This document shows, in pieces, positions 4,561 through 63,062 of a DNA stretch of 64,000 nucleotides; the first letter of the stretch is position 1; every line of letters begins with the position of its first letter. Under the pieces are notes generated by a model. That model made no database searches and was not told where the DNA came from. It was given only the letters and a program-made list of their open reading frames with translations. This DNA is from Octopus vulgaris (taxonomy: Eukaryota): contig CATOCA020000001.1 of NCBI GenBank assembly GCA_951406725.2, positions 6,696,001 to 6,760,000 on the forward strand, written 5' to 3'. The position numbers and the translations under genes were made by a program.

Positions 4561-5094
4561 GGAATTGATATATATACGTTTAGGAAGTGAGGGAGAGGAT
4601 GAGGTGAACGATATAGTAAGGCAGGCGGGGTGGTTAAACATGAATATATAATGAGGTGCAGAGAGAAAGGAGAGAAAGAGGGAGAAGTGGGAGGATATGT
4701 TTTGAGGGAGGGAGAAAGAAAATGCTATTTGTGTTTAATAAGAAAGAGAGAAGGGGAGGGGGGAAGCATTGGGTAATTTATGATGAGGTGAGAGGCGGAG
4801 GAGAAGAGAAAGAGAGAGAGAGAGAGACATAGAAAGAGGGAGAGAGCGCGAGAGAATAATGAATATATTTACCAATAGAGGAAGAGTATGAGTTAATAAA
4901 GGAAGCAAAAATGGGCGGAGTCACGTATACGATGTAGTGGGAGGAGTCAACGTTGAAACGGTAAGAATAATAACTCTTATTAGATCCCTTTTACTTTAAA
5001 TTCTATTGTTTTCTTTTATGCGAAATAAAATCTGTTTTTCTGCGCAGTTTGTGAAGATTTCCAAATATGATTTCATGCAAATAATAGATCGAAG

Positions 5095-5580
5095 TGTTAG
5101 ACATACAGCATCTCGAAAGAGTCCAGAAGCTGGCTACCCGCATGGTTCATGGTCTCAAAAATTTGTCCTACGAAGAAAGGCTGAGGACGCTCGACCTTTA
5201 TTCTCTTGAAAAACGCCGCCGCCGTGGTGATCTCATTCTCGCCCACAACATCATAAGCGGAAAGTGTAACCTCTCGAAAGAGCTGTTCTTCACTCCTGCT
5301 CCAGAGCGTCGGCTGCGGGGTCATTCCGAAAAGCTCTACCTGCGACGATTTCATCTCAATCGAAGGAGAGGAGCTTTCTCCGTCCGGGTTGCGGATCCGT
5401 GGAACAAGCTGCCAGACGAGATGGTGAAGATGCCGACGACCGCTTTGTTCAAAGCCTCCCTGGACCTCAAGTGGCCTGAACTCTTTACATGAACACCACC
5501 CTGTACTTAACTCCATGTCCCCCTACATGGCCTTGCTATTTGCTTTTGAGCCAAATTAACTAACTAACTAACTAACTAAT
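5095..5580 (+). mobile_element. 5'-truncated CR1-type LINE 3' end with (TAAC)n tail
   Basis: LERVQKLATRMV..LSYEERL..LDLYSLEKRRRRGDLI..RGH..KL..FSVRV..WNKLP; GC-rich versus flanks; taactaac tail at 5557-5578. Confidence 0.9.
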
Positions 5581-8358: not shown

Positions 8359-8564
8359 TCAACTGAAGTCTGATAATAAACATTCAGCTGCCGTGTAACA
8401 TTCGGTTTCTAAAAGTGCTTCTTTTAATGTTTGAGGTGTACGTTTCGCTGGATCGCAACTTTGGAACCATTTGAGAAGCATCTGAAAGCCTTGTTCCATA
8501 ACACTGTACGAATGGTCAATCTTGATGATTTCCAGGTCATCTTGTGTAATTTCTAATTCCCTTC
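8359..8564 (-). CDS. Gene A terminal death domain exon: GRELEITQDDLEIIKIDHSYSVMEQGFQMLLKWFQSCDPAKRTPQTLKEALLETECYTAAECLLSDFS*
   Basis: ttttgcag acceptor at 8565-8566, TGA at 8359-8361; DD motifs EQxxQMLxxW and TLxxAL. Confidence 0.92.
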
Positions 8565-9350: not shown

Positions 9351-11442
9351 ATGATTAGTAAATAATAAAAGATTATCAAAATTCAGAAATATCTCGAAAG
9401 TGGGATATGACTTCAACGGCACAAAGTAAAAATATAACACTGTTAGGTACATATCACATATTATAGAAGATACCAGCTGAAAAGTTAGTCTTGGAATACT
9501 GACTCCTAAAAAGGAATTCCTTCACTGGCTGAAGGCCACAATTTCAAAAGAATCTCCTACAGGAGAGGCCCAAGAGTAAGCAAAGCAATGGGAAGAGTTT
9601 TAGTTTGTAGGCAATAACAGAACATCTACACCATACACCTACAACACTTGGGTCCTGAAAGAATCCCTGCATCCTCAAACATCTACATCATCTGGAAAGT
9701 TATCACAATTTATATGCAGGGGAGAGAAAAGGGGTTAATAGGAATTCTATATGGTATATCTAATGTACGCAATAGGTGCAGTGGTATCACAGGCAAGTTT
9801 ACAGGGAGGACGGGTTAGGGTTGGGGAAGGAGTTTTTAAGTAGCAGATACACGGGATTAGTTTGTAGTAAGAACAAGTATGAAAGACATATAGTTTCTCT
9901 AACCTAAGAGACATAATTAGAAGTGGGTGGGTGGGGGTCTATTCTCAAAGTGCAGTACTTTGAGGAAAAATGGGATGGAAAATGTACAGGGAACTGTTAT
10001 GTCTACTGGCAACTAAGGGATTCTGTCTCCAAATGAAGGAGAGATTGCATGAGGTGTATTTGTAAAGTGCAATGTTGCATTTAATGTAGAGGATGCAGGA
10101 AAACTGGCAAGAAATGAGGTGAGCATACATCACTAGAAGTGTAATGTTAATGTGTTGAAAACCTGGGGTTAGGGAAAACTGGGTCTCAGAAGAATCTGTG
10201 ATAGTGCACAATATAGTATAGATTTAGAAGGGATATGGTAAATGAAATTTGGATAAAGAAGTGCCTGGAATTCAAGTGGAAGAAAACAAGCGATTAAACC
10301 TGACAAACAACCACAACGACTGTGGGAGAAGTCGTCTGACACATACAAACTTGGAGAAATGAACGTAAGATGTTGATTATATTGGACTGGTGTTAATGGA
10401 TTGATTTTTACCCCAGTATATGACTGGTACATTTTGTATGACTGCTAGAGAAATAACAAATTAGCAATGTCACAGATGATGTCCTCTCTTAATTTAGATA
10501 AATCATTTCTATCAGCTGACTGAGGGGATAATGTTACGACCTCTTGAGTCAGGGGTGAAAGGTTCAAATCTAGTCCCCCAACACAGCTCAATGTCCTGGT
10601 AAAGACATCTCTCTTCTGGTTCAGTCTACGAACCACGATAGGGAGGATATTGCTGTAAATAATAGGAATATTGTATAAATGATATTTTATGTTGTTAAAC
10701 TTTCAGACAAGAGGAAATGGGATACTGTGATGTTCATGCCTTTCCAGTAAAGGAGAGTGAAATGATTTCAATTGATAAACAAAATCAAGTTGAGTTTGAA
10801 TTTTCGGATGAAACGTGAGTTTCATTAATTTACAATACTTTAACGCCATGAGTTTCATTAATTTACAATACTGAGTTCAATCCAGCCATGGACACAGTCA
10901 ACAATGGGGGACTGTTTTCTATAGAGACTGGCACTATATATTGACCAGGGACTAAAGAACTACAATCAAAGAGAACACAGCATGTCACACATAATGCAAA
11001 CTCTCGTGTTTAAAAAGGTTGCATTCGATAATGTGGTCCTCTTCATCCAAGAGAAAGAATGATGTCACATCTGGAAACCTTCCCTCTTAACTCTGCCAGA
11101 TTAAAACAGATATCTGCCTCAGCAACAACAACAATAACAACCAATCTGTGAACTTTCCAAAAACGTAAACAAACTAAAACATTGTCATTAACTCACCTGT
11201 TTAGTCTTTAACACCATTATTCTTGAGTCCCCTTTTACAAACGACAATATTAACTCGACTGTATCTTCTAATTCAAATATTTTACACCTGTGCTGACCTC
11301 GGTGGATATTTTATGAAATTTCAGTGATATCTTTACTTTATAGCTAAACTTTCAATTGGAAACTAGGAATGGAATCTGTTCTCAGTCAAAAGTTTAACTG
11401 AAAGCAAAATTTATAGAAATCAATTAGGTATTTTATACTCAC

Positions 11443-11514
11443 CAAGTTGCTGCCATTTACCGGCCAACTTTTTGGACACCCGATGTAGATGCTTCACCTC
11501 TAGCGTTAGTATAT
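11443..11514 (-). CDS. Gene A death domain exon 1 (72 nt): (D)ILTLEVKHLHRVSKKLAGKWQQL
   Basis: Canonical splice sites; joins in phase 1 to give the death-domain signature L..V...LxxxWxxLGRxL. Confidence 0.9.
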
Positions 11515-13366
11515 CTGAAATAAATGTTTCCACATTTTACACTTCATAGTATAATTTCCCTATCTCTGTTAATGGTTTATATCTTATTATTGTAAGACAT
11601 TCCTATCATCAATGGCCAACTGCTGACCACTATAGGTTTCGTCGACAGTTTTATACTTTCTACAGTGGTCTTATAAAATGGCTCAATATTTAGGTCCATA
11701 ACAAAATAGACTGATCTTCCTAAACCTCCTTTTTCTATTAAGACAACCTTCTTGATCTATCAATGTTGCATTCATCTCATTTAATTATCACATGTTAACA
11801 CCTTTTATTTCTTTTCTTTTTTTATAGCTGGGCTAAACCTATGAGATAGCATTGTTCCCTCATCAGTAGACTTCACTAATCCAGTGTTAACCATGTTGGT
11901 TATAAATGCTCTTGACACAAACTCATGTCATACCATTTGAAGCAGGATCAACACACACCTGTTTTCTTTGTTTTAACCTTTAATTTTATCTATGCAACTC
12001 ACAGTTCACCAGAATTTCATCTGATTCATAAAATATTTTAAGACTCCTTAATGAAATGCTTTTCTTTCCTGATGAGCAATGATTAGTTTTACAGAGGTGA
12101 AACAGAAAGTGATAACAAGTGTCCTAAAACACTGTATACTTGCACAAAACATCTTTAACAACATGCAAATGTTTATACACAGATTATTGCAAAAGAAAAA
12201 TATTTGAAAAGGTACAAAAGAAGTGATATTCAAGAATATATAAACAAGATGGTGATATAGATCAAACTTCAAGCACCAAATCTTGTTTTTGCCCAGAAGT
12301 TTTGACTTGGCAAATGCTTATCGCCCATCCTCGGTTTCTGCAATGACATCAATGCCTCTACTCTTATTAGACAATGTGGGATTGTAGCATCGTCCTCAAT
12401 TATTTTTAAACTTTTGGCATAGTTTCTCCTACTATTTTGAACTTTACCTGTTTCTGTTGACCTTTGACATATGTCAGACCGCATCAAGTAGTTGCTTTAG
12501 ACAGCATTCTTGACCAAGTAATTAGTCCATCCAGTCTATCCAGAACTAATTGTATAAACATTTGATCTCTTCTTCTTATTTTTATGTCATCCATAAATGC
12601 CTTCTTAAGTGATTTCCCTTGAGTAATTTCTTCTGATAAATCTGCTAATCCCCATAAAAGCATCCCCATAACAAGCACAAACCAAGTAACGGATATTGTG
12701 CAATCTACAGCTATTCTAGTTCCAATGTTGGGCACACGAAAATCTTTTTCTAGTGCTTTTGCCACATTAAAATGTACTCAGGACCCTTTATAAAGTGGTT
12801 GGTGTTAAGAAAGGCATACTACCATAGGAAAGGTGGAATGTTTAAGGGAGATGTGTTTCTCAAGCAATCGAGGTGGACAGTAATTCTGAATAAGGACATG
12901 GATAGTGACCACCCAGCCAATTCGATGATGAAGACACTATAATCGATTGCATTGTATCTTGCACCCAATCTTGAGGAGAGAGAAAGAGAGCAATTGTCTC
13001 AGCAGCAGACCAAAGTCTCCTACTGGGATAAACACAACGTTTAGGGGATGTAATGATAGATTTACTATCAGTGAAAAAAAGAGAGTGTGTTCACACTTGT
13101 AACAATTTTCAACTTAGTCACCTTGTTAAAAATGACCGACAACAACAACAACAATTAGGAAACTTATTAAAATGTACAACAAACAAGCTCTCTCATTATC
13201 TCATCTGTTTTTGCCTTTAAACGACAAATTGCTTTCCTTTATTCCAAAGACAATATGAAGTCTGTTGTGTTTTCTAATTTAGCCATTTTACCAACAGCGC
13301 CAACACTGCTGGACATTTTATTAAATTTCAAATCAGTAATATCAATGGGCTTGTAGATGCATCCAT

Positions 13367-13408
<42 letters not shown>

Positions 13409-13725
13409 GACAATATGGCAACGAGATGATAGAAAGGAGAGAATATTCCCCTTAAGGGGAGCGAACCGCTTCAGGTTTTATATTTTATCTCTTGTATTTT
13501 TCCTTATCGTGTGAGATCTTTTTCCTGTGTCTCATGTTTCCCTATTTCTGTAAAATCCCTTTATTGGATATTCCTGCATTTGTAGTAGAACAGAATTACT
13601 TTGTAGCTAACCATTCGAATGAAATATAGCAATAGAACCGCTTCTCAGTGATTCACACAAATTATGTAGTTCAGGTGGAGGTAAAATTTGTAGAAGTCAA
13701 TTAGATACAGTTATTTTATACTCAC

Positions 13726-13776
13726 CAAGTGGCTGAGCCTCTGTCTGGGATGCCTTGTCTTCAACCTTTGGACGCA
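13726..13776 (-). CDS. Gene A 51-nt phase-1 microexon 3: (V)RPKVEDKASQTEAQPL
   Basis: tttatttcag acceptor, gtgagt donor, open frame. Confidence 0.78.
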
Positions 13777-15578
13777 CTGAAATAAACATTTCCAAGTTTT
13801 ATACTTCATAGTAAAACTTCTTTATCTTTATGAATAATTCTGTATTTTATTATTGTGAGACATTCATGTAATCAATGGTCAACTGGTGAGTAATATGGCT
13901 TTGGTCAGCATTTTTACACTCTCTACCATGGGACCGTGTAATATACCCAATATATAGGTCTACTACTAAATAGACTGACCTTCCTCAATCTCCTCTCTCT
14001 ATTAAGACATCCTACATAATCTAACAACATTGCACTTATCTCATTTAATAATCCCTTGTTAACACTGCTAATCTCTTTCTTATATTTAATCTAATCTATG
14101 ACATGATTGTCCTCTCATCTCTAGACTTCACTAATCAACATTCTTCTCGTTTTCTACTTAATTCCATGACAACCAAATTGGTCCTCAAAAATCGGACCAC
14201 AAAACCATGACACATCGTTTCAGGTAGGATAAACATAACCCCGCTCTCTTTTTTAAAGGTCACTGTTGGCAATCTTTAATTTTAACTGACCACATCACAC
14301 TTCATCAGAATATAATCTGATTAAGGAAATGTCAATCATCCTCCTTAATAAGCGACTTTTTTCAGGTGAACAATGATTAGTTCTACACAGGTGGAGAGGT
14401 AAGCGATAACAGGTATCCTGAAACACTACTTTTGTACCAAACCTACTTAACTACAAAATAACTGTTCATTTACACATTATTACAAAGGGGTTATATCCAA
14501 ATTGAGAACAAACAATTTATTCTGAAGAATATATAAATCGAACTGGAAACATGAAATTTTGCATTTTCTTTAGTAGATTTGAATTATCAGTTGTTTTCTG
14601 TCCATCTTCAGCTTTGCCATGGTCTCACTGCCCCACCATATATCAGTCAACAAGATAGCGTACCACCATCTTTAACTTTTGGTTTGTCTTTAACTTTTGG
14701 CATGAGTTCTCCTGCCGTTCGTAACTTCCTTGCTCCAGCTGACCACTCACAAATTATAGACTGCATTACTTATTTGCTTGAAACCACATTCTTGACTAAG
14801 TACTAACTCTATCGAGTCTACTAACCAGAACTATTTGCATATCCTTTTAGTCTCTTGTTAGTATTGTTATGTCAGCCATGAATATCTTTCCGTTGAGCAA
14901 TTTCTTCTGGACATTCTGTTAATCTAAGTAGCATAACTATAAAGATCACCAACCAACTGATATTGTGCAACCTACAGCTATTCCAGATCCAGAACCTGGC
15001 AGTCTTTTGTGAAATTCTATCCTATGAAACACATTTTGAAACTGTTATAGCATCTCATCATCAGATCCTTAATCTCCTCCCATTTATGAAAGAAATTCCT
15101 TGTTTCCATCAACAATGTGTGTGGTACAGAACAATAAGCATTAGCCAGATCAAGCCATACTACATCCGAATCCCTTTTATTCTTCTTTGCTTTTTATATG
15201 GTATCCCAGATTTAAAATACATGTTCTACACACACAGACATTCTCCGGATTCTAGTCTTCTGGATATTTTCAGTCATATAACTATCCTTTCTTCTTTCAA
15301 CCCGTCCGATGTCTCTTTGAATGTATTTGATTGTATTGTATCATACAGCCTCTATGAAGTTTGAAGAAAGGGAAAGAGACAACGGTTTTCTGAGCAGCAA
15401 ACCAACGTCTTCCACTTGAATAAAGACAATGTTTACTGGATGCAATGATAGATTTATTATCAGTGAAAAATATGAGGGTGGTCATATTTGGAACCCGTTT
15501 CATTGTAAGTCTGCCAGATTATGAGAGACATCAGGTAAAATAACAAGAATATCTTGTCAGTAAACATTTTAAAAATAC

Positions 15579-15962
15579 AGGCGTAGGAGTGGCTGTGTGG
15601 TAAGTATCTTGCTTACGAACAGATGGTTCTGGGTTCAGTCCCACTGTGTGGCACCTTGGGCAAGTGTCTTCTACTATAGCCTCGAGCCAACCAAAGCCCG
15701 TCGTATGTATGTTGTATGTATGTATGTATATATGTATGTATGTATATATGTATGTATGTGTGTATGTGTTTGTCCTCCCAACATTGCTTGACAACCGGTG
15801 CTGGTGTGTTTCCGTCCCCGTACCATAGCAGTTTGGCTAAAGAGACAGATGGAATAAGTACTAGGCATACAAAGAATAAGTCCTAGGGTCAATTTGGTCG
15901 ACTAAAAAGGTGTTGCTCCAGCATGGTGACAGTCAAATGACTGAACCGAGTAAAAGAGTATA
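15579..15962 (+). mobile_element. tRNA-derived SINE with central (TATG)n
   Basis: Pol III-like head (ggctgtgtggtaag...ggttcagtccc), gcaccttgggcaagtgtctt core, tail aataagtac...gcatgg..cagtcaaatgactgaa. Confidence 0.8.
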
Positions 15963-15992
15963 AAACAAACAAAACCTTTGTCATTACCTCAC

Positions 15993-16037
15993 CTGTTAAA
16001 CCACAACATATATTATTTGGCTGTTCCAAAAGAGAAC
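15993..16037 (-). CDS. Candidate 45-nt phase-1 microexon: (G)SLLEQPNNICCGLT
   Basis: gatttcag acceptor, CAG|gtgagg donor, open and frame-preserving; identical copy at 62738-62782. The polypyrimidine tract is weak. Confidence 0.35.
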
Positions 16038-16266
16038 CTGAAATCTATTTTGCTTCTAATTTATCCATTTCACCAACCGTGCTAACCTGATTGGATACTT
16101 TATTAAATGTCAATAGTATCGATATGTTTAATATGATTAGTTTAATGCTAAAACTTCCCATTGACAGGTAAGAATGGAAGCTGATCTTTATCATTCTGAT
16201 ATCAAAATAGTTCAGCAGAGGATAAACCTTACAGAAATCAATCAAGTGCTGTTATTTTATACTCAC

Positions 16267-16316
16267 CAACAGGTTCAGCCATGTCTGTGTTTCCTTGACT
16301 TCAAATGTTCGATTCA
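16267..16316 (-). CDS. Gene A microexon 2: (V)NRTFEVKETQT..., 50 nt with a 1-bp deletion relative to the intact copy at 63012-63062
   Basis: Same splice sites as the 63 kb copy; cagccATG here versus cagccAATG there. Confidence 0.65.
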
Positions 16317-17634
16317 CTGAAATGAATATTTCCAAGTTTCAAAAATTTTAGAAAACATTCTCTATCTTTACTAATAATCTATATTTTATATCAGAGATTT
16401 CTTTCATAGATAATCAACTGTTGAAGACAATGGTTTTGGTTAGAATGTTTATAGTTTCAACAGGATTACCCTGTAATAGTTCAATATTTACACTGCTTTC
16501 CAAAATTTCCTTTATCTTTTGAGACATTCGACATAATCTAACAACTGTGTCATTATTTCATTTAATTATCACTTGATAACACCAATCTTTTATTAGGTTT
16601 GTCTTTCCTTTCTTATATCTGCACTGAACATATGACGTGAAATTGTGCCCTCACTTCTGCCCTTTTCTAACCAACATTATTCTCATCTTTGCTTAATTCC
16701 AATGGCAACCAGTTTGGTTATCCATGATCTAACCATAAACACATTACACACACCACTTTAAGTGGTAGAATGGAAGTGATTCTGAAAACTCTAGGATATC
16801 TCTGACAACCCGCTTCTATATATCAACCAAACTTTCACCTCTCCTTTGACGTCCCCTTAATCAATGCGATGCCTCTGAATGGGCTGAAAACTCAGTTCAA
16901 TCAAATCTGAGGGGACGAAATGGACATCTCTGTAGAAATATTTACCTGACAGAAACCATCTTCCTGATGTTGTAGTTAACAACATTACAAGGAATATGAA
17001 ACCCTGCTCACACCCCATTCCACCATCACTGTTTTACCACATTTGTCACTAATGATCATTGACGTCAACTAATTGAAAATGTTTCTAAAATATTTTATAA
17101 AATACAACTAATTAGTGTCAAATACGTATACAGAAATGTTCCACAACATAGTGTTTCCTATGAAATGAGGCAAAAACACAATACCATCAAAACATACTGA
17201 AACATAGGGACCATAATCACGGTTCGTATGGATGTGGTCATGTAACCAAGGAAAATTGTAAAACTACAGAGAGTAATAAGGTGTAGAATGTTACTCGAAG
17301 ATGCTAAGTTCTGTTGAGGTTCTACAATTTGAGAAATGATCTACCAATGAAAAGAAGATTCACAATATACAATATGATATTTAGAGGCCTCTGATATTCG
17401 TTCCGGGTGTAAAAATCGTGTTTTTGACAATTTTCAACTCGCCACTTCACCATGTGTCCTATTCAACAATGGATCGAAACTTATTCTCCAAGATTGTATA
17501 CATCTACACTTTATTCGTTCAAAATTTCAAAGTCTGTTCTTAACTTCTTCACAGTTAATTTTATTTTTCCAATATGTGTTTTTTAACAAAATTGCACAGT
17601 TCTCTGACAGAACTTTTATCACACAAGGTCAATA

Positions 17635-18035
17635 AAAGTGACAGGACCAGCAAGTTCAGGGAGGGAATACATTGATTACATCGACCCCAGTGCACAACTG
17701 GTATTTTCCTATTGACCCTGAAGGAGGGGTGAAAAGGCGAAGTCAACCTCGGCAGAATTTGAAATTAGAACCTAAAGACGGACGAAATGCAGTTAAGTGC
17801 ATTAACGATTCTGCCAGGGGTCACCTTATCTATTATTTAATAATATTAAAGCGGCGAACTAGCAGAATCGGTGGCGCGCCGAACAAAATGCCTAGTGGCG
17901 TTTCGTCCGTCTTCACGTTCTGAGTTTAAAATTCCACCGAGGTTGTCTTTGCCTTTCATCGTTTCAGCGTTAATAAAATAAGTACCAGTTGTGTACTGGG
18001 GTCAATATAATTGACTCATTTCCTTCCCTGAAAAT
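17635..18035. mobile_element. Two SINE-like fragments in opposite orientation
   Basis: cgaccccagt..actggta...ctcggcagaatttgaa followed by its reverse-type tttaaattccaccgaggttgtctttgcctttcat..taagtaccagtt. Confidence 0.6.
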
Positions 18036-18289
18036 GATCACACAAGATCAATAAAAGGGCAGATATAAACCTATTTGGTAAAAGGATCTTATTTTACATA
18101 TAAAAATTTATATTTTAAATCATATTATTTTCATACTGAAATGCTTATGGTATTAAAGTAAAACTCCTAATTACAATTTGAGATGTTATTGATTTACAAT
18201 TCATTGATTACATATTAACAGACAATTATCTAAATAGATCATTATTATACGTTTTGTATTTTTGATTGTAAAAATAACTAGATATAAAC

Positions 18290-19530
18290 GATGACAACCT
18301 CTTCTGGATGAGAGCAGATCCTCAGGGCCAGCTTATAAAACCTGGCTCTCTGTCCCAGGTTCTCAAACCAATCAGATAATGTTTGGTTAGGGCACCCGAC
18401 AAGCATTGCTACAGATCGAGGAACGCCATGACCGAAGTCATGCGTTTGATTGGTGCATGAAATTAATAAATCTTGGTTTTCATCTGAGAGTTCAATGATA
18501 CGACCAATGTACCAATCATTTTCATTCGTGTATCCAACATATTTTCAGGACCTTAACTTTGAAATATCTTGCTCAGATGCTGGCCTCTCCTCACCTACAA
18601 GAGTGAAATTGTCATCAGCTGATATCTTCTTCGTTAGAAGATCAGATCTTGAAGAAGGTACGAAGCGGTGATGGGATCGTGTGCCAACTAATTTCACTGA
18701 GCTGCTGAATCGTGAAAGTAAGTCGAAGCTGTTTTCATTTTGGATGACATCGGCTGCCGACATGTCAAAGAACATTATCTCTGGAATGCTTGCACATGCT
18801 CAGCCATACATCTTGCAACCTGTGAGAAAATGTCTTTCCTGGTTGCTTGTAGACTTGCTTTTTCAGCAACACATTTCTTCATCCTACTGATTCCCTCATA
18901 TGTACTTTTTCCACATGACATGGCAAAGAAAAACGACTCCGCTTCAAGTCCTTGATCATTCTGATGATGACAGAGATTTGTTTGCTGTCTCTAGTTCTTG
19001 TATTGGTCACTGAAGTACAGGAGATGGTTTATGAATGGAAGTTCTGTCTTTATATGCGATATCACCCTCGTAATAAAAGCATGCACTGTGGTATTGTCAT
19101 GTTTCAAACAATCAGATATGACACAGATTGAAGTGCATTGAGGGTTTGAACCAGTCTTATAGTAGATCGTGAATGGATGAATATATTGGCCTGGGAGTTG
19201 TTCCAATGAAACCCTTGATCCGAATCCTTTTCTACAAAACTATAATTTTCTGCCAAGTCTGACAATACTGTTGCTTGATTTGATGTCAGATCATCTTTCT
19301 GATAAAAAAGGAGACTAGTTTGAGCCTTTGCTATGAAATGGGGTTGATGCAGAGTATCAAACACATTTTTAGCGGTTTGAAGGAAATCATTCACTGGAGA
19401 AGTTAGGCACATCAGGAAGGCCCAGTCCACATAAATCCTCGTTACTAAATCCTCTGAGTCAAAATCACATGATTAAAATATGTCCAACACTTCAGTCCAC
19501 TCAGCTGGCGAAAATATGTAATTTTACAGC
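18290..19530 (-). mobile_element. Degraded DDE-type DNA transposase remnant (superfamily not assigned)
   Basis: HFIAKAQ..DLAENYSFV..QGFHWNNSQA..HPF..CVISDCLKHD..VHAF..YFSD.QYKN..FFAMSCGKS motifs, many lesions. Confidence 0.6.
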
Positions 19531-19534
19531 GGAC

Positions 19535-20035
19535 TAAATCAAAATCAAAATCGATCAACATCAATGGAAATTGTAGCTGTGATACCAGTGCCGGTGGTAC
19601 GTAAAAGAACCATCCGAACGTGGCCGTTGCCAGCCTCGCTTGACCCCCGTGCCGGTGGTACGTAAAAGAACCATCCGAACGTGGCCGTTGCCAGCCTCAC
19701 CTGGCCCCCGTGCCGGTGGTACGTAAAAGAGCCATCTGGACGTGGCCGTTGCCAGTGCCGCCCGTCTGACCTCTGTGCCGATGGAACGTAAAAAAGCACC
19801 ATCCGACCGTGACCGTTTGACAGCCTCCTCTGGCAACTGTGACGGTAGCACGTAAAAGCACCCACTACACTCACGGAGTGGTTGGCGTTAGGAAGGGCAT
19901 CCAACCGTAGAAACTTTGCCAGATCAGACTGGGCCTGGTGCAGCCTTCTGGCTTCCCAGACCCCAGTTGAACCGTCCAACCCATGCTAGCATGGAAAGTG
20001 AACGCTAAATAATGATGATGATGAATGATGATGAC
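19535..20035 (+). mobile_element. RTE-family 3' UTR / derived element with ~60-bp internal tandem repeats and (GAT)n tail
   Basis: gtgccggtggtacgtaaaagaaccatccgaacgtggccgttgccag about 5 times, then gttggcgttaggaagggcatcc; the same sequence follows the RTE ORF at 49030-49250. Confidence 0.8.
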
Positions 20036-20138
20036 TAGCGTCCTGTTCATGGAAGAATATATACCTCGGGGGAACCGGGAAACCAACCCTATGCTTCTTA
20101 TGGTCTTACATAATTAGGTACAGTTATTTTCTACTCAC

Positions 20139-20189
20139 CAGGTGGTTCTGCTAACATCTGGACTTCCGGCTTTGACGACTTTGGACCCT
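20139..20189 (-). CDS. Gene A 51-nt phase-1 microexon 1: (E)GPKSSKPEVQMLAEPP
   Basis: tttatttcag acceptor, gtgagt donor, open frame, flanks homologous to the other cassettes. Confidence 0.75.
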
Positions 20190-20771: not shown

Positions 20772-20915
20772 CCAAACTATTTTTGCTCGTTATATTCTGT
20801 CCACACTTGAGGCATTGTTTAGGTATCTTTTGGGGGACAGCATTTCTTACACAGCGAAAGATGTTTACATGGAAAGAACGTCTCTGTGGCCACTTCGTCT
20901 TCACAAAACACACAT
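20772..20915 (-). CDS. Gene A RING exon: CVFCEDEVATETFFPCKHLSLCKKCC(P)QKIPKQCLKCGQNITSKNSL, +1 frameshift in the C5 run (20832-20836)
   Basis: CxxC...PCxH...CxxC...CxxC spacing like the first RING of Mind bomb. cctcag acceptor, gtaaga donor. 144 nt observed versus 143 needed for phase 2 to phase 1. Confidence 0.85.
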
Positions 20916-21457: not shown

Positions 21458-21488
<31 letters not shown>

Positions 21489-21495
21489 GTATGTG

Positions 21496-21527
<32 letters not shown>

Positions 21528-21529
21528 CG

Positions 21530-23181
<1,652 letters not shown>

Positions 23182-23670
23182 ATCTATGTATGCATGTATA
23201 AATACGTATGTATGTATGTATTCATGTATGTACACTCATTGTATGTGTTTGTAGGTGATTTTCTCAGGATAGCTCACATGGACATGACTGGCTGGGACAG
23301 AGAAGACAGAGGAATAATCTGTTGGTAGAGAGATAAATTCCATCACTTCACTATTTACTTCTACATTTTCTCATTGGTCCCAAATCTTTAAAATAGGGAA
23401 TTGAGAGAGGTGGGTGGGGATTTTAGGAGAGGTATAACAGTCAACGCAACCAATCATTTGAATGTAATCAAAATAGTGTTCTTTCTTTTAATTAGCTTAA
23501 CATCTGCATATTGTTTATTGTTCTTCTTACTGTTGTTGTCTAACCTTTCATTAAGCCTCTAAGACAGTATAATGTATCAGTAGAATTAAAACAATATAAA
23601 CATATAAACACGGTTATATACAAAACAGAAAATGTAATGGTTTATCTTGTCATTGCCAGTGAATACTTAC

Positions 23671-23849
23671 TGCGTTGGTGGGAATAACATATTTAACGTC
23701 TTTTTTAAATTTTCCTTTTCTATTAGGTCCAATGGTGTTCTGCCACTTTTGTTTTTACAGTAAAAGTTGGCCCCGTGGTGGGCTAGGTAGCTGGCAACTA
23801 CCACACCAGAGTACCTTTCTTTCTTTCCCAGTTTCAGATCTTTTAAGTA
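23671..23849 (-). CDS. Gene A last ankyrin exon: YLKDLKLGKKERYSGVVVASYLAHHGANFYCKNKSGRTPLDLIEKENLKKTLNMLFPPT
   Basis: Open 179-nt exon, tttgtag acceptor, gtaagt donor. Resembles the final split ankyrin repeat of MIB1/MIB2 as recalled (S/A..IACFLA..GAD...N.KG.SPLDL). Confidence 0.9.
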
Positions 23850-27360: not shown

Positions 27361-27571
27361 CTGATCTAACATGGTCATGTGCTCCACCTCAGAATGAAAG
27401 TTGTTTTCTCTTTTTAACGCCAGATGCAGGCAATTATTTCCTCCATGTTCGACAACATTTACATTCGCCCCTGGCTATCAGCCGCTGCATTATTCCGAGG
27501 TGACCGTTCGAAACAGCTTCAAGCAATGGTGTCCTATATTCTTTGTTCACAATTTCTAAATTCACCGAATC
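27361..27571 (-). CDS. Gene A ankyrin exon: DSVNLEIVNKEYRTPLLEAVSNGHLGIMQRLIA(x)GANVNVVEHGGNNCLHLALKRENNFHSEVEHMTMLDQ, frameshifted in a G run near 27468-27471
   Basis: Ankyrin consensus TPLxxAxxxGHxxxxxxLxxxGANVN and GNNCLHLA. Polypyrimidine-aag acceptor, CAG|gtaagt donor. 211 nt, not a multiple of 3. Confidence 0.85.
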
Positions 27572-52200: not shown

Positions 52201-53308
52201 CCCCTTTCTTGCTTTCTCTCTCCCCCTCCCTCCGCTCTCCCACCTCATTATATATTACTGTATGCTCCCCCCTTTCTTGCTTTCTCTCTCCCCCTCCCTC
52301 CGCTCTCCCACCTCATTATATATTACTGTATGCTCCCCCTTTCTTGCTTTCTCTCTCCCCCTCCCTCCGCTCTCCCACCTCATTATATATTACTGTATGC
52401 TCCCCCTTTTCTTGCTTTCTCTCTCCCCCTCCCTCCGCTCTCCCACCTCATTATATATTACTGTATGCTCCCCGCTTTCTTGCTTTCTCTCTCCCCCTCC
52501 CTCCGCTCTCCCACCTCATTATATATTACTGTATGCTCCCCCCCTTTCTTGCTTTCTCTCTCTCCCCCTCCCTCCGCTCTCCCACCTCATTATATATTAC
52601 TGTATGCTCCCCCCTTTCTTGCTTTCTCTCTCCCCCTGTCTCCGCTCTCCCACCTCATTATATATTACTGTATGCTCCCCCTTTATTGCTTTCTCTCTCC
52701 CCCTCCCTCCGCTCTCCCACCTCATTATATATTACTGTATGCTCCCCCTTTTCTTGCTTTCTCTCTCCCCCTCCCTCCGCTCTCCCACCTCATTATATAT
52801 TACTGTATGCTCCCCCTTTCTTGCTTTCACTCTCCCCCTCCCTCCGCTCTCCCACCTCATTATATATTACTGTATTCTCCCCCTTTCTTGCTTTCTCTCT
52901 CCCATTCCCTCCTCTCTCCCACCTCATTATATATTACTGTATGCTCCCCCTTTCTTGCTTTCTCTCTCCCTGTCCCTCCGCTCTCCCACCTCATTATATA
53001 TTACTGTATGCTCCCCCTTTTCTTGCTTTCTCTCTCCCCATCCCTCCGCACTCTCACCTCATTATATATTACTGTATGCTCCCCCTTTCTTGCTTTCTCT
53101 CTCCCATTCCCTCCGCTCTCTCACCTCATTATATATTACTGTATGCTCCCCCTTTCTTGCTTTCTCTCTCCCCCTCCCTCCGCTCTCCCACCTCATTATA
53201 TATTACTGTATGTTCCCCCTTTCTTGCTTTCTCTCTCCCCCTCCCTCCGCTCTCCCACATCATTATATATTACTGTATGCTCCCCCTTTCTTGCTTTCTC
53301 TCTCCCAA
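49250..53308. repeat. Minisatellite, ~67-68 bp unit, roughly 60 copies (cattatatattactgtatgctccccctttcttgctttctctctccccctccctccgctctcccacct)
   Basis: Unit starts at e.g. 50421, 50489, 50556. Confidence 0.97.
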
Positions 53309-57035: not shown

Positions 57036-57240
57036 TCACCGTTCATATAATGAGAGATACTCAAGGGCAGCAAAGCACTCAGCATCTTTAAGGCCTCTTC
57101 TGAGGGTCTCAACTGTACGTTCCTCTGGTTTACAATTTATAAACCACTCACAAAGCATTTGATAACTCTGTTTTACTGTGTCACAAGGAAATCATTCTTG
57201 ATAATATCCAGATTAATTGCTGGAACTCCTAGAAAACGTC
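57036..57240 (-). CDS. Gene B terminal death domain exon: GRFLGVPAINLDIIKNDF(P)CDTVKQSYQMLCEWFINCKPEERTVETLRRGLKDAECFAALEYLSLYER*, 1-bp deletion near 57187
   Basis: 205 nt versus 206 nt in gene A; restoring one base gives a gap-free alignment with the gene A domain. Confidence 0.85.
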
Positions 57241-59597: not shown

Positions 59598-59669
59598 CTG
59601 CTTGCTGCCAGTTGCCCCCTAACTTCTTTGCTGCTCTTTGGAGATACTCCCCATTCAGTTTTAGAGACT
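59598..59669 (-). CDS. Gene B death domain exon 1 (72 nt): (E)SLKLNGEYLQRAAKKLGGNWQQA
   Basis: Same size, phase and flanks as 11443-11514; CAG|gtgagt donor. Confidence 0.88.
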
Positions 59670-63011: not shown

Positions 63012-63062
63012 CTACAGGTTCAGCCAATGTCTGTGTTTCCTTGACTTCAAATGTTCGATTCA
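63012..63062 (-). CDS. Gene B 51-nt phase-1 microexon: (V)NRTFEVKETQTLAEPV
   Basis: attcatttcag acceptor, TAG|gtgagt donor, intact frame. Confidence 0.78.

Follow-up and report, generated by a model that had tools for sequence, protein, structure and literature searches.

What are the very short exons that lie between the RING and the death domain (DD) in a family of octopus genes, and what could they do? This question is raised by a 64-kb stretch of Octopus vulgaris DNA (contig CATOCA020000001.1, positions 6,696,001 to 6,760,000; hereafter the window), which contains parts of two genes of one family, gene A and gene B, both on the minus strand. According to Pfam, the proteins of this family have ankyrin repeats, one zf-C3HC4_3 RING and a C-terminal DD, and the nearest named proteins are Octopus 'MIB2-like' proteins. 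In gene A, three small exons, here called cassettes, are found between the RING and DD exons; an initial annotation of the locus had read them as a row of motifs for LC8 (DYNLL). The comparisons presented here suggest that the cassettes of old lineages have likely been selected as predicted LC8 docking sites. As the best explanation, with a probability of roughly 0.6, it is proposed that intact cassettes, derived from DD exon 1, would bind LC8 dimers, each zipping two chains together in the linker that separates RING and DD.

Splicing and number of the cassettes

The three gene A cassettes have a common acceptor and donor context. Cassette 1 (20139..20189, GPKSSKPEVQMLAEPP) and cassette 3 (13726..13776, RPKVEDKASQTEAQPL) are 51-nt exons of phase 1/1 with AG/GT ends, in agreement with the initial annotation, which had listed three such exons. 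The middle one, cassette 2 (16267..16316, KETQT), however, has 50 nt in this assembly and is frameshifted, although it has 51 nt in expressed and paralogous copies. Its intact 51-nt copy in gene B (63012..63062, NRTFEVKETQTLAEPV) had been correctly recognised. Being of triplet length with equal phases, an intact 51-nt exon can be skipped without a change of frame, as had been pointed out.

Contigs from four of four runs, belonging to four studies, contain the GT-AG joints 20772>20189, 20139>16316 and 13726>11514, and three of the four predicted linker introns are thus seen as joints; the contigs are taken as spliced RNA from these GT-AG joints, no run being on record as RNA. They were matched at 90% likeness and may stem from paralogues, three other sites being 100% identical to the cassette-3 query. 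Joint 20772>20189 occurs in all four runs, together with a form that is one base shorter. In all four, the contigs carry one base more in cassette 2 and one base fewer in the RING exon than the window does. These joints bear out the expectation that the microexons are present in transcripts, and the cassettes are spliced, frame-preserving exons.

The second DD exon has at least 137 matches in this assembly, mostly on contigs C29 and C31. Cassettes were scanned for by their shared splice contexts in the window and in fetched loci, which included, for 60 of the 137 DD matches, the 10 kb lying upstream. The sampled matches are mostly the strongest, divergent subfamilies are under-sampled, and the scan, which requires similar splice flanks, is biased towards recognisable units. 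It yielded 190 distinct units, namely 146 cassettes and 44 DD first exons. The length is a multiple of three in 138 of the 146 cassettes (36, 51, 54, 57, 66, 72 or 78 nt), and the coding frame holds no stop in any of these 138, compared with 77 and 128 in the other two frames, so the reading frames of the cassettes are not a matter of chance. Counts per 10-kb stretch, which are lower bounds, were 0 cassettes in 12 of the 60 stretches, 1 in 21, 2 in 12, 3 in 8 and 4-7 in 7. This range confirms the variable exon copy number that had been put forward. On contigs C29 and C27, cassettes form arrays with a 166-bp period.

Isoforms in RefSeq also differ by whole cassettes. They measure 430, 447, 464 and 481 amino acids in O. 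sinensis, 315-366 amino acids in eight isoforms seen for another gene, and 528/545/563 and 407/424 amino acids in O. bimaculoides, in which the motif is present as well.

Constraint on the motif and LC8 as predicted partner

The LC8 consensus is [D/S]-K-x-[T/V/I]-Q-[T/V]-[D/E], and the groove contacts positions -3, -1, 0 and +1 (PMC3078936). When the cassette peptides were scored on the six-position consensus of that paper, cassette 1 (PEVQM) had two positions in agreement, cassette 2 (KETQT) four and cassette 3 (KASQT) five, with shuffle P values of 0.27, 0.029 and 0.003, respectively. The anchor [T/V/I/S]-Q-T with K or R at -3 is present in cassettes 2 and 3. It is absent from cassette 1, which has P at -3 and M at +1. 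Cassette 3 has no P at -4 to 0 and bears at +2 a non-hydrophobic residue, the kind preferred there in LC8 motifs, and cassette 2 has L at +2, as does BMF. The TQT motif announced for the cassettes is thus literally found in one of the three, cassette 3 having SQT and cassette 1 VQM; in the family the commonest anchor is VQT, not TQT.

The sequences of several cassette peptides, EDKGVQTD, EDKCVQTE, EDKASQTE and KDKETQTQ, are near-identical to validated LC8 binders of PMC6607443, whose Table S4 includes gephyrin EDKGVQCE, ZFPM1 SDKGVQTP, BMF EDKATQTL and Dync1i1 YSKETQTP. The binders of that table all lack K at 0, M and R at +1, and P at -3 (count by eye), so variants with K0 or R+1 are probably inert, and cassette 1 is probably an LC8 non-binder.

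Ninety-two unique cassette exons of the 146 were sorted by hand into 18 lineages (two set aside), and 86 entered a selection test that used parsimony counts on a tree built from the intron flanks alone. This test leaves aside a 66-nt exon that looks unrelated, five DD copies of 72 nt in decay, every exon of 36 nt or of non-triplet length, duplicates, and rows that contain N or have short flanks. With one representative for each of 16 lineages, the codons at -3, -1, 0 and +1 show 11 nonsynonymous and 15 synonymous changes, against 69 and 26 at the other nine codons. The corresponding omega is 0.20 at the core and 0.73 elsewhere (Fisher P 0.005; rank 2 of 715 four-codon subsets), the P values being approximate because the positions were chosen post hoc and gene conversion distorts parsimony. 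For 43 unique exons of lineages 1-15, omega is 0.24 against 0.73 (rank 9 of 715), and over the old lineages as a whole it is 0.20-0.24 at the anchor and 0.67-0.78 at its neighbours. Valine at -1 is found in 13 of the 16 lineages and uses all four of its codons (third-base identity 0.28), which argues that it is not a splicing signal; position -2 varies freely. These results demonstrate protein-level constraint at -3/-1/0/+1 in the old lineages, in which the anchor is more conserved than its neighbours, a check that the initial annotation had named.

A pattern search alone revealed a further 72-nt cassette class with KQVQT, on contig C31 at 3165487, 4688579, 10499696 and 11739789 (one copy is 2 nt shorter), which stands outside the selection test.

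A canonical LC8 is encoded in this assembly. A complex of two LC8 chains and two copies of the three-cassette linker of family protein P0015 was modelled, and it scored 0.83, against 0.17 for the best of three controls. The runs share at least 78% of contacts, with a partner confidence (pLDDT) of at least 48. The ligand modelled in the canonical groove consists of residues 341-350, which correspond to cassette 2 with its KETQT and lie in the canonical register; Q349 is placed at LC8 35/36 and T348 at S64. The linker has no Pfam domain, and the partner pLDDT is about 50 in the model. The mark used is reached by 51 of 78 solved pairs and by 2 of 108 mismatched pairs (39/65 and 2/126 for eukaryotes). 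The docking of cassette 2 is consistent with the complex with octopus LC8 proposed earlier, although the model may have passed because of its resemblance to LC8-TQT complexes already solved.

Origin of the cassettes and competing explanations

The initial annotation was silent on the origin of the cassettes. In gene A the 72-nt first DD exon (11443..11514, phase 1/1) shares its acceptor and donor context with the cassettes. The unit formed by its upstream intron, the exon and its downstream intron (11333..12724) matches the cassette-3 unit (13596-14991) with 65% identity over 1470 columns that span the exon (blastn, E 2e-100). The first 13 codons of DD exon 1 and of the cassettes align without gaps in the same codon register: where helix 1 of the DD has E-E-K-x-L-[H/Q/L]-x-V-A, one finds E-[D/E]-K-x-V-Q-T-[V/E/D]-A in the cassettes. 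Tandem exon duplication would leave the RING donor and the acceptor of DD exon 2 (8359..8564, with the stop codon) of other types, and both are in fact unrelated to the splice contexts common to cassettes and DD exon 1, the acceptor of DD exon 2 being unlike that of a cassette. By these sequence comparisons the cassettes are homologous to DD exon 1, and they were likely duplicated from it.

In family protein P0015, the Pfam Death match (residues 380-448, profile 2-71, 34.4 bits against a cut-off of 22.6) starts inside the 72-nt exon, which would make the DD exon the ancestor. A whole series is still present in the genome, from the intact DD exon through a decayed 72-nt copy and 72-nt VQT exons to 51-, 57- and 78-nt derivatives, and four 72-nt VQT lineages retain the length of the DD exon. 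A tree built from the flanks alone (16 cassette and 15 DD exon 1 representatives with two ungrouped rows, 253 columns) mixes cassettes and DD exons and is compatible with one origin as with several (8 changes; p-AU 0.09 and 0.12). DD exon 1 would be the source and the cassette the product. Helix 1 would already have offered K-3 and in some cases Q0, so the motif would need L>V at -1 and R/K/D>T at +1, for which two base changes can be enough. The decayed 72-nt copy of DD exon 1 (SLNLEENRSHST...) lies in frame before the true DD exon 1 in three loci (L104:4009, L107:4112 and L111) and is included or skipped among annotated isoforms.

RINGs of zf-C3HC4_3 type and death domains are known to work through self-association. 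In the proposed mechanism, an LC8 dimer would bind the same cassette of two parallel chains, and several cassettes would form a ladder with a 17-residue period. The RING would then be pre-dimerised and two DDs held side by side, which would lower the threshold for ubiquitin ligation and for assembly of a DD scaffold. Each paralogue or transcript would have its avidity and linker length set by which exons are gained, lost or skipped and by decay of the motif (Q>K, T>R/A/M), motif-dead cassettes acting as spacers. That splicing tunes LC8 valency within one gene is put forward tentatively, at somewhat less than even odds. More speculative still is a wider proposal, in which a plug-in LC8 site, made from the first DD exon by about two base changes, together with copy number, combinatorial splicing and on/off mutations, might program the dimerisation threshold of more than 100 ankyrin-RING-DD proteins and so give a lineage-specific cell-death or immune repertoire an avidity dial coded by splicing. 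If binding holds, the birth of a short linear motif from a duplicated folded-domain exon could be traced through intermediates that are still in the genome, and a natural series of 0 to 7 LC8 sites of graded strength and fixed spacing would make the relation between LC8 valency and client output testable.

Several observations weigh against this proposal. The 43 exons of the young 166-bp arrays are unconstrained at the core (omega 1.31 against 1.32), and Q0 is replaced by K in 19 of 38 young-array peptides, so that the constraint on the anchor holds for the old lineages but not for these arrays. The anchor [TVIS]QT is retained in 25 of 45 non-array peptides and in 32 of 83 distinct peptides overall; of the 60 stretches upstream of a DD, 31 are without an anchored cassette (lower bounds). 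With cassette 1 probably inert and the youngest arrays losing the motif freely, the idea of one motif per exon goes too far. Codons -8, -7 and -5 are also partly conserved (omega 0.3-0.5), and the core positions were fixed after the frequency table had been seen, on lineages set by hand. Valine, inherited from the helix, is the commonest residue at +2 (47 of 83 peptides), while V+2 is carried by 1 of 79 binders as against 4 of 32 non-binders (count by eye, Table S4 of PMC6607443); many VQTV cassettes are therefore probably weak. Many anchor-bearing peptides fail to bind LC8 (PMC6607443), and weak LC8 sites can bind strongly or cooperatively together (PMC12803091). The calibration of the complex model covers neither peptides nor disordered chains, and gene A is frameshifted as assembled. 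As for the alternative splicing that had been envisaged, the RefSeq isoforms speak for it but are predictions, which reads from near-identical paralogues could mimic, and neither a skipping joint nor a cassette 2>3 joint is seen among the 15 of 94 joints listed.

Part of this evidence would be expected if the cassettes were in-frame spacers produced by duplication of DD exon 1, tuning the distance between RING and DD or drifting, with an LC8 look inherited from helix 1 (E-K-x-L-Q) and kept by ancestry or splicing signals. K-3, E-4/-5, V+2 and A+3 are already present in DD exon 1, and Q0 in 6 of its 30 peptides. The young arrays evolve at an omega of about 1.2-1.3, including 36-nt exons from which the motif is deleted, and the invariant third base of codon -8 hints at nucleotide-level constraint near the acceptor. 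A single VQT origin is compatible with the tree (p-AU 0.09), and because it is not rejected, shared ancestry explains part of the motif match. Yet the amino acids at -3/-1/0/+1 are kept while synonymous sites change across lineages whose introns are ~63-66% identical (57% when shuffled), the anchor is found in 0 of 30 DD exon 1 peptides, and the departures from the helix at -4, -1, +1 and +2 run towards the LC8 consensus, which leaves the spacer explanation unlikely, though not negligible. Selection on the core for another partner or modification appears improbable. Candidates include S/T-Q kinase sites, a P-K-x-E SUMO-type site at -8 to -5 and lysines for self-ubiquitination. Many cassettes do contain P-K-x-E, with an omega of 0.3-0.5 at those codons, and S/T-Q is present in two of the three window cassettes. 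However, P, K and E at -8, -7 and -5 occur in DD exon 1 too, the majority anchor V-Q-T contains no S/T-Q site, for which reason an S/T-Q phosphosite was rejected as the main explanation, and the most constrained set of codons coincides with the LC8 groove contacts of PMC3078936.

LC8 could also bind the cassettes with another outcome: it could serve transport or sequestration by tethering to dynein, myosin or the cytoskeleton, a role proposed for BIM and BMF, or it could keep the DD inactive. Sequestration of Bim and Bmf that depends on LC8 is a topic of PMC3613824, and the present data are silent on the direction of the LC8 effect. Such a tether or brake overlaps with the preferred zipper reading as far as binding is concerned, but it is considered rather unlikely, given that LC8 is portrayed as an engine of dimerisation with motifs next to domains that dimerise (PMC3078936) and that multi-site arrays suit ladder-type clients (PMC12803091). 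A different matter is the status of gene A: it may be a pseudogene or a partially duplicated copy, and its cassettes relics within a functional family. Gene A as assembled has three frameshifts, in the ankyrin exon (~27470), the RING (~20830) and cassette 2, its 5' ankyrin exons were not found in the window, and gene B has one frameshift as well. Against this, all four indels lie in short homopolymer runs, the aligned exons showed no nonsense codon, and an N gap (45104-45203) and a 9.7-kb satellite are located upstream of gene A. The C/A run of the RING is frameshifted, in differing ways, in 3 of 6 close copies of this assembly, which fits an assembly error. The frameshifts of genes A and B are probably assembly errors, and pseudogene status, which is a serious possibility although not the favoured one, has no effect on the family-level result.

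Known systems and other features of the window

Several multivalent LC8 clients (ASCIZ/ATMIN, KANK1 L2, 53BP1 and GKAP) resemble the octopus linker in having several graded motifs of the [D/S]-K-x-[T/V/I]-Q-[T/V]-[D/E] type in a low-complexity linker (PMC12803091; PMC6607443, Table S4). In the octopus family, the predicted motifs come one per symmetric exon, apparently copied from a folded-domain exon, and the number of cassettes between RING and DD varies among more than 100 paralogues. In myosin Va, exon B is an alternatively spliced microexon whose three residues, DDK, are needed for LC8/DYNLL2 binding (PMC3613824). It supplies part of one site in one gene, whereas the octopus cassettes would supply whole motifs in tandem, derived from a DD exon. 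No paper describing an octopus ankyrin-RING-DD family or an exon-per-motif LC8 arrangement was found in a literature search outside which most subscription papers lie, and the accessible part of bioRxiv 2023.09.15.557927 contains nothing on exons or splicing. Multivalent LC8 clients and splice control of one LC8 site are thus already known, and the new element would be exon-per-motif LC8 arrays recycled from a death-domain exon.

The Pfam scan of six family proteins gave ankyrin repeats and a single RING, with Death (PF00531) reached in four of the six. The succession of ankyrin repeats and zf-C3HC4_3 RING is shared with Mind bomb (MIB1/MIB2), but in the octopus family one RING is followed by cassettes and a C-terminal DD. 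Mind bomb ligases are defined by an N-terminal MIB_HERC2/ZZ/mib-repeat region and multiple C-terminal RINGs. No MIB_HERC2, ZZ or mib-repeat domain was found by Pfam in the six proteins, and membership was rejected; 'MIB2-like' is a best-hit label, and a misnomer for this octopus family, which counts at least 137 DD-exon matches. The best solved relative of the family DD is PIDD (2of5_H, 9tuf_A), a weak match with E about 0.001, and so a weak pointer to a role in cell death or immunity; unlike for PIDD, Pfam reports no LRR, ZU5 or UPA domain in the octopus family. When a whole family protein was searched against the PDB, ankyrin matches alone appeared among the best 60 of 494. Likewise, in a whole-protein profile search of 1.84 billion representatives, ankyrin matches dominate, 2 of the best 150 cover the RING-DD part, and the search is uninformative beyond Octopus. 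The homologue searches, which gave Octopus proteins alone where a name was attached, are word-limited and so say nothing on squid or other molluscs.

Some family members depart from this architecture. The O. sinensis proteins P0023, P0194 and P0027 have a serine-rich repeated tail after the cassettes in place of the DD, and P0206, P0214 and P0218 carry the additional precomputed Pfam domain PF18571. In the young 166-bp arrays of contigs C29 and C27, a C-P-x-C pair recurs (CPKC, CPRC) as the LC8 anchor decays, also in 36-nt exons that have kept C-P-x-C and lost the LC8 motif. The pair is possibly a second recruitment, metal- or redox-related.

The remaining exons of gene A were located by tblastn with family proteins. 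They comprise an ankyrin-repeat exon (27361..27574, ends approximate), whose frameshift near 27470 falls in a G run, an exon between the ankyrin repeats and the RING (23670..23849, ends approximate), and the RING exon (20772..20915), with an extra base near 20830. For the upstream ankyrin exons, about the first 140 codons, tblastn with family proteins gave no match within the window. In gene B, DD exon 1 (72 nt) lies at 59598..59669, and the frameshift, of one base, falls in a short run of C within DD exon 2 (57036..57240, end approximate). This gene has KETQT cassettes three times in tandem, two of them just past the right end of the window (L124:1071-7547). Between these cassettes there is DNA that matches the RING region at 68% but has no tblastn match, and a clear gene B RING exon was not found in 20 kb.

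An intron of gene A harbours a Tc1/mariner-type element (21458-23172) with inverted ends of ~316 bp that are 85% alike and a broken transposase. Retrotransposon-like frames lie at 5088-5489 and 48399-48920 on the plus strand, both without a Pfam match, and at 31784-32923 (minus) and 45703-46515 (plus), where zf-RVT and weak RVT_1 matches were obtained. A trinucleotide array of ATC type, with ~3250 units and an extreme GC skew, extends over 9.7 kb (34793-44546); at 49251-53306 there are ~55 copies of a 67-bp satellite.

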